From positions 1 to 54,247 of the forward strand of contig JALXBF010000109.1 in assembly GCA_026991575.1 (NCBI GenBank): a stretch of 54,247 bases of DNA, written 5' to 3'. Below are positions 21,605 to 30,676 of this stretch, one piece after another. Source of the stretch: Planctomycetota bacterium (GTDB lineage Bacteria; Planctomycetota; Planctomycetia; JALXBF01). Every line of letters begins with the position of its first letter. Positions within the stretch are counted from its first letter, which is position 1. Both the position numbers and the translations under genes were made by a program. The notes beneath the pieces are model-generated. The model was given only the letters and a program-made list of their open reading frames with translations. It was not told the origin of the DNA and did no database searches.

Positions 21605-23773
21605 ATGAAGACGACAGCCGACAAATCGCCGCTCCGGGTTGTGCTGCTGGTGGCAAGCGTCGTTGTCAGCCTGAGTCTTGGGTCGGCCAGCAGCGGTCTG
21701 AGCGGTGAGGACAAGCCCATGGCCAGCAAGAAGATCAAAAACCCGGAGGAGCCGGTCCGTGAGGTGATCCACGGGGTGGTTGTCGAGGACCCGTTCCGCT
21801 GGCTTGAGGACGGCGACGCGGCCCGGGTGCGCGAGTGGGCCAGGCGTCAGGACCTCCACACACGGAACATCCTCCATGGTCTGCCCTGGTACGAACAGCT
21901 CAAGCAGCGACTGCTTCAGTTGCACCGGCTGGCGGCGATCGGGACACCCACGCCCCGCGGCCAGCGCGCGTTCGTCCTGGAACGCAGCCCGGAACAGATC
22001 CAGTACGTGCTGGCGGTCTACGAGCTCCGTTCCGGGCAGCGGACCGTGTTGGTTGACCCGAACAAGCTGGCTGCCGACGGGACGGTGGCGATCGACTGGT
22101 TCCACGTCTCACCCGATGGCGAACTGGTTGCCTACGGTCTGTCGGAGGGAGGGAGCGAGCGGAGCACACTGCACATCGTGCGTGCCGACGGTAGCAAGCT
22201 CGATGACGTCATCCCCGCCACGCGTGCATGCAGCCTGGCCTGGTTGCCCGATGCCAGCGGCTTCTTCTACACGAGGTACCCGCTGCCGGGCACGGTGCCC
22301 GCGGGCGATGAGAACTACTACAGGCGGGTGTACTTCCACCGCCTGGGCACCGATCCTAAAGCTGACCCGTTGGTCTTCGGTGCCGACCGGGCACGCGAGG
22401 ACTGGCCTGTGGTGGACCTGTCACCCGACGGCCGCTGGCTGGTAATTACAGTGCATCAGGGCTGGGCGCGCAGTGAGCTTTACGTGGCGGACGTCAGCCA
22501 GGAGCCGTACGTCTTCCGCCCCGTGGCCGAGGGCATCGACGCAATCTTCGACGGCATTGCCCTGAACGACCGCATCCTGATCCACACCAACTGGCAGGCT
22601 GCCCGTTACCGGGTGCTGATCGTGAACCCCCGGCAGCCGGACCTGGCGAAGGCCACGGAGTTCGTGCCCGAGCAACAGGACACGTTGCTTGACGTCGCTG
22701 TCGCCGGCGACAGGTTGCTGTTGACGTACCTCCACAACGCCGTCTCCCGGCTTGTGGTCACCCCGCTGGCGGAGTACCGCCCCAGTCCTGTGGCACTGCC
22801 GTCGATGACGACCATTGCCGGCATCGGGGCCACCCGCGGCAGCCGCGACGCGTTCGTGCGGATCCACTCGTTCGTTCGCCCCACGGAGCTGTACCGCCTC
22901 GGACCCGAGGAACAGAAGCTGGTGCTGTGGCGCAAAGTGCAGGCTCCGATCGACCCGGAGCAGTATGAGGTCAAGCAGGTGTGGTACCGGTCGAAGGACG
23001 GTACGCGCGTGCCGATGTTTCTGGTGTTCCGCCGCGACCTGAAGCCGAACAGTCCCATGCCCACAGTACTTTACGGCTACGGCGGGTTCAACATCAGCAT
23101 CACCCCACGGTTCTGGCCGTCGTTGCCGGTCTGGCTTGATTCGGGTGGTTTGCTGGCAGTGGCGAACCTGCGAGGAGGGGCCGAATTCGGTGAGGCGTGG
23201 CACCGGGCCGGGATGCTGCAGAACAAGCAGAACGTGTTCGACGATTTCATCGCCGCCGCTGAGTGGCTGATCGAACAGGGGTACACCAGTCCGGAGCGGT
23301 TGGCCATTATGGGGCGTTCCAACGGCGGACTGCTCGTGGCCGCGGCGCTGACGCAGCGGCCCGAGCTGTTTCGCGCCGTGATCTGCGGCGTGCCGCTGAC
23401 GGATATGGTCCGCTACCACAAATTCCTGATTGCCCGTCTGTGGATTCCCGAGTACGGCGACCCCGACGACCCACAGCATTTCCGCTGGCTGTACGCTTAC
23501 TCACCGTACCACCGCGTTCGACGCGGTGTCTCGTATCCGGCGGTGTTGATCACGACGGCGGAGTTCGACACCCGGGTTGATCCGGCTCATGCGCGCAAGT
23601 TTGCGGCCCGGTTGCAGAACGCGACTGCGGCCGAAGACCGCCCGATTCTGCTAAGAGTCGAGTCCCGTGCCGGCCATGGGGCAGGCCGACCGGTGACGAA
23701 GGTGGTCGATGAGGAGGCGGACGTGTGGAGTTTCCTGTTCTGGCAGCTAGGTATTGAGCCGGCGCTGCCATGA
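21605..23773 (+). CDS. Prolyl oligopeptidase (S9A), probably secreted
   Basis: DPFRWLED; propeller domain; YGYGGFN; GRSNGG nucleophile, DTRV Asp, AGHG His. Confidence 0.96.
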   Translation: MKTTADKSPLRVVLLVASVVVSLSLGSASSGLSGEDKPMASKKIKNPEEPVREVIHGVVVEDPFRWLEDGDAARVREWARRQDLHTRNILHGLPWYEQLKQRLLQLHRLAAIGTPTPRGQRAFVLERSPEQIQYVLAVYELRSGQRTVLVDPNKLAADGTVAIDWFHVSPDGELVAYGLSEGGSERSTLHIVRADGSKLDDVIPATRACSLAWLPDASGFFYTRYPLPGTVPAGDENYYRRVYFHRLGTDPKADPLVFGADRAREDWPVVDLSPDGRWLVITVHQGWARSELYVADVSQEPYVFRPVAEGIDAIFDGIALNDRILIHTNWQAARYRVLIVNPRQPDLAKATEFVPEQQDTLLDVAVAGDRLLLTYLHNAVSRLVVTPLAEYRPSPVALPSMTTIAGIGATRGSRDAFVRIHSFVRPTELYRLGPEEQKLVLWRKVQAPIDPEQYEVKQVWYRSKDGTRVPMFLVFRRDLKPNSPMPTVLYGYGGFNISITPRFWPSLPVWLDSGGLLAVANLRGGAEFGEAWHRAGMLQNKQNVFDDFIAAAEWLIEQGYTSPERLAIMGRSNGGLLVAAALTQRPELFRAVICGVPLTDMVRYHKFLIARLWIPEYGDPDDPQHFRWLYAYSPYHRVRRGVSYPAVLITTAEFDTRVDPAHARKFAARLQNATAAEDRPILLRVESRAGHGAGRPVTKVVDEEADVWSFLFWQLGIEPALP

Positions 23774-23782
23774 AAGATGCAC

Positions 23783-23820
23783 AAAAAAGCCCCGTTACCC
23801 GGTGCAACCCGGGCAACGGG
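23783..23820 (-). terminator. Intrinsic terminator on the minus strand
   Basis: Minus strand CCCGUUGCCCGG-GUUGCA-CCGGGUAACGGG-GC-UUUUUU: 12-bp stem with one G.U pair (A.C mismatch on plus) followed by a U6 tract. Confidence 0.85.
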
Positions 23821-23900
23821 ACCGGAACAGAGAAGAGGCGAGGGTAATGCGGGCATCGCCAGGGCGACTGGAAGGGGGGACAGCCGCCCTTCGCCTCGGG
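23783..23900 (-). ncRNA. Candidate ~120-nt small RNA (no family recognised)
   Basis: Lies between a near-consensus sigma70 promoter and an intrinsic terminator on the same strand, with no credible ORF; folds into outer stem GAGGCGA/UCGCCUC and hairpin GGGCGGCUG-UCCCCCCUUC-CAGUCGCCC. Confidence 0.65.
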
Positions 23901-23905
23901 TATCC

Positions 23906-23933
23906 ATCCTAACCAATTCCAGTCTGGTGTCAA
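23906..23933 (-). promoter_or_regulatory. sigma70-type promoter TTGACA-N16-TAGGAT
   Basis: Perfect -35 (23928-23933) and 4/6 -10 (23906-23911), pointing at the terminator ~90 nt downstream. Confidence 0.7.
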
Positions 23934-24241
23934 CCGGCGCAGCAGTGCAGTTCGGCTCGTGCCCGCACAGCGGCATTGCAGTTCCCAGGGAGACAGCGAC
24001 CGGCGAGCGGCCGGCGTCGCTTGCCGTGTCGCGGGAGCGAGGAGAGTCACACGGTGTAGGGGGCCGTTGAGCGGTTACGCGTGGGGCCATTGCGCGGTAG
24101 CCAGCTCCAGGGGCTTGCCCGGTCAAGTCAACCACGCGTCGTTGCCACTCCGCCGGCTGCCAGTCTGGACGGAGTGTTCCGTCGTGGCGACGTGCCCGTG
24201 TGTGTGTTGCGGGGGTGCGAGCTCGTTGCGGGGTGCTCTGA

Positions 24242-25342
<1,101 letters not shown>

Positions 25343-25490: not shown

Positions 25491-26885
25491 CTAGTAGCCG
25501 AGGCTGCGTTCGATCGCCGCCAGGGCCTCTTCCACTGGCCAGCTCGCGCCGCCAATGGTCAGGATGGCGCGATCCTGGAGCCACTGGCGCACGCGCCGCT
25601 CAGCGGCCATGACGGTCGTGTGTAGCCGGCCGCCGAAGTGCTTGCCGATGGCTTCGTACGAGGCGCCCGTGTGCTTGCGAGCCAGGTACATGGCGAGCAT
25701 GCGTGGGTAGGCGATGCTGGTGGCTCGCGATCGGGAACGGATGGTTTTGGTGTCGAGTTGGAAGAGTCGACAGACGGCCCGTTCGATGTCGCGCAGCGTG
25801 ACGCGCTTGACTCTGCGGTGGAGCAGATCGACGAGTGCTTCGCGGGCGGTTTCCACCGTGAGCTTCCGCTGACGCAACGATGCAGCGGCCAGCAGTCGGT
25901 TGACTGCTCCTTCCAGCTCACGCACGTTGCCGATCACATGGTCGATGACAAACTGTTTGACCGGTTCGCTGAGCTGCAGCCCGATGGCGGCCGCCTTGGT
26001 TTCCAGGATCCGGCGTCGGGTTTCGCGATCAGGCAGGGCCAGTTCGCAGGTGAAGCCGGTGACGAGCCGTTCGCGGAGCGGTTCGGAGAGGGCGTTCAGG
26101 AAGCTGGGGTGCTGATCGCAGGTGACCACCACCTGGTGGTTGTTGGAGACGAGTTCGTCGATGGTATGGAGCAGTTCTCGTTGCGTGGCGTTTGTGCGTG
26201 CGATGAACTGGATGTCGTCCAGCAGCAGGAATCGGGTGCTGCGCATTTCCTTGCGGAACCCGCTCAACTTGCGGGCCTGCATGGCTTCGAGGAAGCGGTT
26301 GGTGAATGCTTCGCTGGTCAGGTAGATGGGCCGGCTACTGCCGCGGCGTCGCTGGGTTTGGTGTTCGATGGCGCGGAGCAGGTGTGTCTTGCCGGTGCCG
26401 AACGGGCCGTAGAGCACGAGCGGGTTGAAAGCGCGGCCGGGGTTCTGAGCCACTTGCTTGGCGGCCACCACGGCCAGTTCGTTGCACGGGCCGACGACGA
26501 AGTTTTCGAACCGGTATCGGGCGGCGGGCAGTTTCGTTTCGTCGGACTCGTCGCCTTCGCTGACCGCGGTGCCGTTGGTGGGCCGGCTCTGGCTGGGCGG
26601 TGCGGCCTCATTGCGACGCATCTGGCGGAACAGTTCCGGGTCGACCACGATGCGCACGCGCACCGCGTGCCCTGTGACGCTATGGGCTGCTTCTCTGAGC
26701 AGTCCGAGGAAGTTTGCCGATAGCCAGTCCTGGAAGAAGAGGTTCGGGACGCCTACGACCAGCTCGCCACCATCCAGCTCGAACTTCGTGTTGTCCCTGA
26801 ACCAGAGGTTATAGCGCAGTTCTCCCACGCGCGCAGCCACCTCGCGCCGGATGGCTGCAGCCAAGCCGGTCTCCGTGACTTTCAC
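25491..26885 (-). CDS. dnaA: Chromosomal replication initiator DnaA
   Basis: Domain I YNLWF/VPNLFFQDWL; FENFVVGPCN; NPLVLYGPFGTGKTHLL; LDDIQF; NVRELEGA; domain IV GGRLHTTV; GTG start after GGGGGA. Confidence 0.95.
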   Translation of the reverse strand: MKVTETGLAAAIRREVAARVGELRYNLWFRDNTKFELDGGELVVGVPNLFFQDWLSANFLGLLREAAHSVTGHAVRVRIVVDPELFRQMRRNEAAPPSQSRPTNGTAVSEGDESDETKLPAARYRFENFVVGPCNELAVVAAKQVAQNPGRAFNPLVLYGPFGTGKTHLLRAIEHQTQRRRGSSRPIYLTSEAFTNRFLEAMQARKLSGFRKEMRSTRFLLLDDIQFIARTNATQRELLHTIDELVSNNHQVVVTCDQHPSFLNALSEPLRERLVTGFTCELALPDRETRRRILETKAAAIGLQLSEPVKQFVIDHVIGNVRELEGAVNRLLAAASLRQRKLTVETAREALVDLLHRRVKRVTLRDIERAVCRLFQLDTKTIRSRSRATSIAYPRMLAMYLARKHTGASYEAIGKHFGGRLHTTVMAAERRVRQWLQDRAILTIGGASWPVEEALAAIERSLGY

Positions 26886-29932: not shown

Positions 29933-30676
29933 GTGAGCACGACGATCGAATTGCCCGAGAAGCTGGATGTGATCGCGGTCGGCGCGCATCCGGACGATGT
30001 GGAGATCGCCTGCGGCGGCACCCTGGCCTTGCTGGCCCAGCAGGGCTATCGGGTCGGCATCGTGGACTTGACCGATGGTGAGCCGACGCCGTTGTCTCCG
30101 GGCCCGGAGGCCAGACTAGGCGAAGCCCGGCGAGCTGCCGAGATCCTGGGGGTGCATGTGCGCGAAACGCTGGATCTGCAGAACCGGGCGCTGTTCGATA
30201 GCTTCGAGGCACGCGTGGCACTGGCGCGAGTCCTGCGCCGGTACCGCCCCTCCGTGGTAATCGGCCCGGGTGGCGGCACGCCGATGGCGTCACCGGATCA
30301 CTACCAGGCGATGCTCATCACCGATGCAGCCGTCTTCTACAGCCGATTGACCAAATGGGACGCTCACTTCGACCACTTGCCCCCCCACCGCGTCGCCGCC
30401 CTGGTACACTACTGGCTCGCACTGCGTGGCCCCGAGCCGCTGCCCCAAGGGGGGGCATTCGTGGTTAACATCACCCGTACCTTCCAACGCAAGATCCAGG
30501 CGATCCGAGCGTACGAGAGCCAGTTTCCTCCCGAGAAGGAGTACATCTTCCACGTTATCGAAACGGTCAATCGGCACGCGGGCCTGAGAGCCGGGTTCGA
30601 GTACGGGGAACTCTTCCTGTACCATCGACTCGTCGGCACCGAAGACCTGGTCTCGTTGGTCGTGCCGGAAGGTTGA
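29933..30676 (+). CDS. PIG-L family N-deacetylase (BshB1-like)
   Basis: GAHPDDVEIACGGT, DLTDGEPT, R..EARRAAEILG, SPDHYQ, AYESQF. Confidence 0.88.
   Translation: MSTTIELPEKLDVIAVGAHPDDVEIACGGTLALLAQQGYRVGIVDLTDGEPTPLSPGPEARLGEARRAAEILGVHVRETLDLQNRALFDSFEARVALARVLRRYRPSVVIGPGGGTPMASPDHYQAMLITDAAVFYSRLTKWDAHFDHLPPHRVAALVHYWLALRGPEPLPQGGAFVVNITRTFQRKIQAIRAYESQFPPEKEYIFHVIETVNRHAGLRAGFEYGELFLYHRLVGTEDLVSLVVPEG

Follow-up and report, generated by a model that had tools for sequence, protein, structure and literature searches.

In the sponge pairs QrrX-Qrr1-4 of Vibrio and SroC-GcvB, sibling sRNAs are titrated by a sponge RNA whose complementarity to their seed is extended, and this depends on Hfq; in Vibrio it is the sRNAs, not the sponge, that are σ54-driven. 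RNAs of the CsrB/RsmZ type are decoys with repeated GGA-containing motifs, and CsrA prefers A-N-GGA. According to the available text of PMC11331407, ArcZ of the Enterobacterales combines a variable 5' part with a conserved seed of 16-18 nt ahead of the terminator and has an active unit of 55-60 nt; the 5' part is proposed there to mask the seed, and ArcZ pairs at the SD regions of many mRNAs. The sX13 RNA of Xanthomonas is described in part of PMC3771888 as Hfq-independent, with pyrimidine motifs that pair with G-rich start regions and three conserved C-rich loops. NmsR of Neisseria, in the portion of PMC5362039 at hand, has sibling copies, anti-SD pairing and a tricarboxylic-acid-cycle target set. 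For the Planctomycetes, the Weinberg 2010 set includes the candidate RNA motif Rhodopirellula-1, typed as cis-regulatory (PMC2864571, in part). The available part of PMC9029176 gives 8 recorded sRNA families for the whole PVC group.

The DNA studied here, which we call the window, is a stretch of 54,247 nt from contig JALXBF010000109.1 of the Planctomycetota bacterium assembly GCA_026991575.1. The original prediction placed in it a minus-strand promoter, TTGACA-N16-TAGGAT, followed by a small RNA of about 120 nt ending in a terminator, all between two plus-strand genes. Each of these was recovered, the RNA with a predicted length of 118 nt, and the neighboring genes were recognized as a convergent peptidase gene and a divergent malate dehydrogenase gene. 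The features of the locus are as follows.

23928..23933, minus strand: -35 hexamer TTGACA of the σ70 type, from the promoter scan and homologues
23906..23911, minus strand: -10 hexamer TAGGAT, from the promoter scan; homologues have TAnnAT, often with TGn before it
23783..23900, minus strand: predicted small RNA, long form, about 118 nt, from the fold and terminator; its start is inferred to lie 6-7 nt past the -10 box
23891..23897, minus strand: predicted 5' arm masking the first five seed bases, from the fold
23861..23890, minus strand: lineage-specific 10-bp hairpin with C-rich loop, not conserved, from the fold and locus comparison
23842..23848, minus strand: weak match, a looser variant here, to a second, U/A-rich motif, W-U-Y-A-U-Y-C
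23822..23839, minus strand: invariant 18-nt seed, the pyrimidine stretch GCCUCUUCUCUGUUCCGG, from homologue comparison
23783..23823, minus strand: intrinsic terminator, stem 23823-23788 then U6, from the fold and homologues
21605..23773, plus strand: convergent neighbor, prolyl oligopeptidase gene; context only, not conserved beside the RNA
24404..25342, plus strand: divergent neighbor, malate dehydrogenase gene; context only

The promoter has 10 of 12 consensus letters and a spacer of 16 nt; two promoter-like sites are present in the interval 22500-25000, where 0.3 would be expected. The 118-nt minus strand folds with a predicted energy of -63.3 kcal/mol (z -5.3, with none of 200 shuffles as good), while the plus strand of the same stretch reaches a z of only -1.8, in agreement with the proposal that G-U pairs favor the minus strand. 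Some details of the proposed fold had to be corrected. The terminator ends in U6, reaching 23783, but its stem comprises 15 pairs counting G-U rather than 12. The outer stem (23897-23891/23841-23835) is present in both the MFE and centroid structures, as is the hairpin with the C-rich loop (23880-23871), whose length is 10 rather than 9 bp. The second hairpin, also proposed to have a C-rich loop, has only 3 bp and the loop AUGCC and is missing from the centroid. The outer stem covers five bases of the conserved linker/seed, and the computed cost of opening the seed in this copy is 11.9 kcal/mol. The terminator base is UCCCG in the window RNA and CCCCG in almost all homologues. The dnaA gene (25491-26885, minus strand) is 1.6 kb from the RNA, in a neighborhood that is not common to the homologues.

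Locus comparison shows that the small non-coding RNA element is real and that the conserved unit is the seed linker plus terminator, not the C-rich hairpin. A DNA search of 60 relatives matched 11 genomes, with every match starting at the pre-terminator linker and the hairpin body matched in none of the 60. The exact 18-mer (23839-23822) was found at no fewer than 119 loci (at least 119) in the species collection, and 76 of the 80 titled records among the matches listed are from Planctomycetota. Exact-seed records span Pirellulales, Gemmataceae, Isosphaeraceae and Thermoguttaceae and include a described species, Paludisphaera soli. By a lenient test, a terminator lies directly behind the seed in 125 of 130 unique loci. 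In 100 of these 125 there is a σ70-type promoter within 150 nt, compared with 15 for the reverse complement and 19 for shuffles; these promoters have T[T/G/A]GACA and a spacer mostly of 16 nt. The terminator stem covaries: 7 of its 8 pairs have changed on both sides. The stem base is fixed in sequence, with CCCC in 122-124 of 125 loci per position, and the seed variants observed are mostly C-to-U changes, which preserve pairing to G. Since the 125-locus sample had been selected on the exact seed, a covariance model was built. In 64 of 121 class genomes the model scored 66 hits at 48.9 bits or more; about seven further hits in the class were intermediate. No score passed 25 bits in the 29 genomes of family f6, or 25.1 bits in 141 genomes from other classes. 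A pattern search for the seed element gave 0 of 272.

Predicted RNA lengths at 107 loci range from 60 to 189 nt. Short forms, with at most 20 nt ahead of the seed, account for 36 of these and long forms for 63. The seed is mostly unpaired in the 36 short forms, and RNAalifold leaves it open. For 53 of the 63 long forms, pairing to the seed is better with the first 18 nt than with the rest of the extension (-10.2 vs -5.9 kcal/mol), a purely computed count in which kin are not independent. The W-U-Y-A-U-Y-C motif occurs in 32 of 63 long forms, vs 3.0 in shuffles. A second, short copy with two seed changes is present in this genome at C110:21421-21487 (minus strand; L198:2922-2988); it is convergent with a large upstream gene. 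Several genomes carry the RNA at two or three separate syntenic loci, the siblings having the same seed but unlike hairpins, and three separate sibling loci retain the exact seed. Twenty loci with extra chromosomal copies were inspected by eye and none was prophage-borne. One sibling locus adjoins feoB in several genomes (L362, L368, L373, L051, L064, L087). The class-wide conservation with its own promoter and terminator, the siblings and the convergent contexts support a free-standing trans-acting RNA, as originally predicted, with a working part other than the one then proposed.

Seed matches that lack a terminator were found to represent a second element on the opposite strand. In the loci examined, unique seed sites with at most one mismatch comprised 185 canonical sites and 37 non-canonical ones (without a terminator). 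The σ54 consensus is TGGCAC-N5-7-TTGCT in the available text of PMC12316311. A σ54 promoter was located 20-170 nt upstream on the complementary strand for 12 of the 37 non-canonical sites. The other strand had no such promoter at any of the 37, none of the 185 canonical sites had one, and the remaining 25 of the 37 had none in range. At 2 mismatches, the σ54-linked sites were 15 of 85, vs 0 of 85. The putative partner RNAs share a layout in which the promoter is followed by about 100-300 nt with one near-perfect and several partial seed complements, and a hairpin with a run of U's often closes it; ORFs within 330 nt behind the promoter reach maximal lengths of 40-108 codons. Sites are repeated 2-7 times in 14 of 15 partners, vs 0.4-0.8 in shuffles, and nine partners align solely at the promoter, sites and 3' end (37% mean identity). 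A GGG extension complementary to the terminator base is present at 13 of 16 partner sites, vs 2 of 18 sites near start codons (see below) and 0 of 54 in f6. Of seven cognate pairs, the five computed all cofold, each gaining between -28 and -36 kcal/mol. In these predictions the partner takes up the run of four C's at the base of the stem and opens the four basal pairs; the upper stem stays paired.

The first partner scan of this genome did not pick up the RNA that we now regard as its likely partner:

C138:23592-23730, plus strand: candidate partner RNA, σ54 promoter at 23592, U-run at about +104

This predicted RNA (about 110 nt, terminated) has a 5' tail that makes 17 contiguous pairs with the seed and two bases upstream of it. 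It is the best of 120 intergenic σ54 regions, its site is among the two longest exact seed complements in the genome, and 17 pairs were reached by 2 of 200 shuffled seeds. When cofolded with the full-length window RNA, it gains -18.3 kcal/mol with the masking arm displaced; that arm (23891-23897) has the same letters as the pairing tail. The pairing does not reach the terminator stem. The second best σ54 region, C65 with a promoter at 30312 (minus strand), has a 20-bp extended site that does reach the stem. Its leader precedes an ORF with a signal peptide, thioredoxin-like in function as judged by eye, that was missed by the gene caller. Three copies of a repeated element (C149:178, C149:2536, C161:11491) have a σ54-like promoter ahead of a transposase-like frame.

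No Rfam 15 family reached its gathering score for the window (best sub-threshold 11-20 bits), for 20 homologue loci or for 14 partner or csrA loci. Like ArcZ, the window RNA family has a conserved seed directly before the terminator and a variable 5' part that, by computation, masks the seed in most long forms. It differs from ArcZ in having no sequence or Rfam match to it, in that the short form seems to be transcribed directly in many species, in the existence of a predicted σ54 counter-RNA and in its apparent independence of Hfq, which ArcZ needs: Hfq (PF17209) was matched in 0 of 121 class genomes (control 5 of 14). ProQ had no match in this genome, which has one RNase E/G gene and two csrA genes. 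The likeness to the sponge pairs is a separate RNA, non-coding and complementary to the seed over an extended stretch; here, however, it is the sponge that would be σ54-driven, multi-site and able to reach the terminator base. The window RNA is similar to sX13 in length, with a weak Rfam resemblance (15.2 bits; gathering 50), but its C-rich loop is not conserved and its seed is a single-stranded linker. With NmsR it shares sibling copies and predicted anti-SD pairing; it has no sequence match to NmsR, and no tricarboxylic-acid-cycle target set emerged here. The partner RNA resembles CsrB/RsmZ in its repeated GGA-containing motifs, and its sites recur in csrA leaders; GGA does not occur in the window RNA, the repeats of the partner track the complement of the seed, and there is no Rfam match. 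Rhodopirellula-1 has another sequence, and the seed string is absent from the supplement parts of PMC2864571 that were searched. Two toxin-antitoxin assignments were rejected. For type III, the element is a single unit, the protein encoded downstream of many copies is predicted to be a beta-supersandwich, and family f7 has the RNA without that protein; for type I, an antisense ATG is present in 30 of 125 loci, with ORFs of 1-366 codons and no peptide common beyond close kin. The literature searched, which did not extend to subscription journals or bioRxiv supplements, holds no description of the RNA, and no paper in it has the seed string. As judged from its sequence, the RNA is ArcZ-like in anatomy and sRNA-sponge-like in logic, outside any Rfam family and in a class where Hfq was not detected. 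The match of its seed to a second RNA with a promoter of another type points to an undescribed RNA-against-RNA control circuit.

Candidate mRNA targets were sought with gene calls from a simple caller (3453 genes, 81% coding), which overlooks some genes and starts. The top start region of 3391 in this genome belongs to C29:1380-2243, with a predicted -41.3 kcal/mol across the SD region. The site also ranks first after accessibility correction, is matched by both RNA copies and was equalled by 0 of 25 shuffled seeds. The product has a signal peptide and a PEP-CTERM-like tail, a label given by eye to its C-terminal motif, for which Pfam and NCBIfam gave no hit. This site is not conserved in its two homologues (-24.5 and -17 kcal/mol). 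More generally, the 11-mer complementary to seed positions 8-18 lies 12-45 nt ahead of a plausible ATG in 18 of 95 sites in RNA-bearing genomes, counting non-RNA sites, vs 3 of 54 in f6 (Fisher p 0.018), f6 being a single family and kin not being independent in this comparison. The replication sets alone gave 8 of 43 (p 0.045); the strict rule was written after sets 1, 2 and f6, so that only set 3 (5 of 29) is blind. An earlier, looser classifier, applied before the last replication set, gave 13 of 66 vs 7 of 54 (p 0.23). By eye, about 11 of the 18 near-start sites precede genes for exported proteins; the Pfam names at such sites are planctomycete extracellular domain, prepilin motif, beta-helix, BNR repeat, CsrA, kinase and RecR. 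A start-anchored pattern was no commoner outside f6 than inside, and no mRNA target is conserved class-wide. Within this genome, neither the 15 planctomycete extracellular-domain genes nor the PEP-CTERM genes were enriched as a class, and 5' regions of up to 300 nt, taken for 2545 genes, held no site better than -29.4 kcal/mol. Motif-defined Fe-S and haem protein classes were likewise not enriched (p 0.5-0.99), and an iron-sparing role of the RyhB or FsrA type was set aside on this result.

Several individual targets were also discarded. The rpoD gene has one strong site (L271) but is average across 30 orthologue leaders; shuffled seeds did as well at pairing to 16S, 23S and RNase P RNA; and among tRNA and tmRNA duplexes the seed reached -21.6 kcal/mol at best. 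Aragorn output for this genome includes normal and permuted tmRNA calls that overlap on a single contig. Among 60 of the roughly 70 listed sites with one or two mismatches, the near-full-length target candidates were mostly variant RNA copies, coding sequence or partners, and a link to IS110 was dropped, two of the sites being codons at a protein C-terminus. A boxA reading, considered in view of a suhB-like neighbor, was abandoned: what we take to be the boxA-like sequence of the 16S leader differs, and suhB is divergent. At the level of sequence, the mRNA evidence fits many weak, shifting targets and not one fixed target.

From the observed anatomy, distribution, complementarity and statistics we infer a scheme of transcription, pairing in the cell, repression, sponge direction and processing. 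In this scheme, which we consider probable, the window RNA is a constitutive, Hfq-independent base-pairing repressor, and σ54 activation yields a sponge that removes it. The RNA, one of the class Planctomycetia, would be made from a housekeeping-type promoter, with a working unit of about 60 nt (seed plus terminator). The seed would pair with purine-rich ribosome-binding regions of many mRNAs, individually poorly conserved and often for exported proteins, and with leaders of σ54-driven genes (csrA paralogues and, here, the secreted thioredoxin-like gene); at initiation regions, pairing would most likely block translation. The σ54-driven non-coding RNAs would act as an inducible sponge, often reaching the terminator base, and sponge pairing over seed and stem base would explain why both barely change. 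Long forms such as the window RNA would hide the seed behind their own 5' end and would have to be processed or opened by strand displacement. With an invariant 18-nt seed and a co-conserved σ54 counter-RNA, a class-wide sRNA would give Planctomycetia a first defined circuit of post-transcriptional control. It would make testable both base-pairing regulation without Hfq or ProQ and the wiring of σ54-driven csrA paralogues; both RNAs are short, with exact predicted ends and pairing.

A same-strand gene downstream of the terminator, as expected of an attenuator or riboswitch leader, is present in 65 of 85 loci and at neither copy in this genome; the downstream gene is on the opposite strand in 18 loci. 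The most frequent neighbor, in 43 of 85 loci, is a divergent inositol-monophosphatase (suhB-like) gene. One conserved same-strand protein is encoded downstream in 42 of 85 loci, at a median of 36 nt from the U-tract, which leaves no space for a separate promoter. This protein (L084:2593-3336 and 41 homologues) is planctomycete-specific, about 240 aa long, with a conserved C-terminal motif and no Pfam or NCBIfam match; its model is a beta-supersandwich (pLDDT 89) like glycosidase N-terminal or mutarotase domains. It is conceivable, if rather unlikely, that a σ54-induced RNA pairing over 22-23 nt (seed plus terminator base) both neutralizes the sRNA and drives read-through into the promoterless gene at the ancestral locus. 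If so, an RNA-triggered switch at an intrinsic terminator would tie σ54 and the CsrA paralogues to the synthesis of exported proteins, in an ancient circuit free of Hfq that is also carried by some planctomycete phages. An outright antitermination reading makes the element chiefly a leader, where the σ54 RNA binds the nascent seed and the four basal C's and polymerase reads into the next gene. All five computed cognate partners do take these C's, and in several genomes of family f5 (L263, L265, L296, L299, L302) a syntenic copy keeps a structured leader and terminator with the seed decayed, so that leader and terminator outlast the seed. We nevertheless think this reading unlikely. Both copies in this genome and the 18 opposite-strand loci face a convergent gene; f7 has the RNA in 25 of 25 genomes and the downstream protein, which was not found in f6 either, in 0 of 25; the C138 partner stays out of the stem; and the upper stem is still paired in the cofolds.

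The scheme of repressor and sponge must also be weighed against protein binding, in which a protein binds the seed, or else CsrA binds the GGAAC repeats and the partner is a CsrB-like decoy neutralized by the window RNA. The invariance over 18 nt would suit such a reading, as would the two csrA genes here and the extended site found in csrA leaders of three independent sources (L150, L408, L566/L571), in L150 behind a σ54 promoter; four csrA leaders with sites were, however, retrieved because of the site, and neither csrA gene of this genome has one. We counted in its favor that, in the available texts, csrA is common in the phylum (PMC13443453) and often σ54-driven in the class, with σ54 promoters enriched at csrA (PMC12316311); the main text of the latter is silent on small RNAs. 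Against it, the 118 nt of the window RNA contain no GGA, partner letters before GGA vary freely while those after it follow the seed complement, and the C-to-U bias of the seed variants keeps pairing to G. Protein binding is, in our view, an improbable account.

The roles of the two RNAs might instead be reversed, the σ54 RNA being the regulator and the window RNA a constitutive, threshold-setting sponge. The consensus-like promoter, minimal size and multiple copies of the window RNA suit a titrator, and the C138 RNA offers a purine-rich tail free at its 5' end. The repeated sites in 14 of 15 partners, however, are the pattern of a sponge, and start codons carry the complement, not the seed; we consider the reversal improbable.

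The original prediction proposed the C-rich hairpin loop as a functional anti-SD element with dnaA as a possible target. The hairpin folds stably, and 10 of the 63 long forms contain C5 runs, vs 3.6 in shuffles, but the loop decamer is in no other seed-bearing locus, the window 5' body compared with 271 seed-bearing loci is at shuffle level (best 27; shuffles up to 24), and 36 of 107 homologues have at most 20 nt ahead of the seed. Pairing at the dnaA start region is weak (-13.9 kcal/mol with the loop, -10.7 with the seed), and we consider this reading highly improbable. That the locus is untranscribed as a gene, being a normal bidirectional terminator that serves the peptidase gene and lies by chance near letters resembling a promoter, is almost certainly wrong: the hairpin does lie 10 nt past the peptidase stop codon, but the U-tract and G-U pairs favor the minus strand, among 151 other strong terminators of this genome none has more than 10 of the 18 seed letters ahead of it, and promoter, seed and terminator move together across contexts.

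A few copies lie in unusual surroundings. INPHARED phages and PLSDB plasmids had no match to the element. Full seed-plus-terminator copies were found among phage genes in IMG/VR contigs (L350:6960-7022, L351, L352:1871-1892, L604), near integrase and repressor genes and in one case directly ahead of terminase; these may be phage-borne copies or attachment sites. In a contig titled archaeal (L015:2495-2563), GC content jumps from 35% to 69% exactly at the seed, there is no promoter, and the contig is a probable assembly chimera. Two contigs titled non-planctomycete, L061 and L081, have the complete element, L061 together with the planctomycete downstream gene, and are probably mis-binned.
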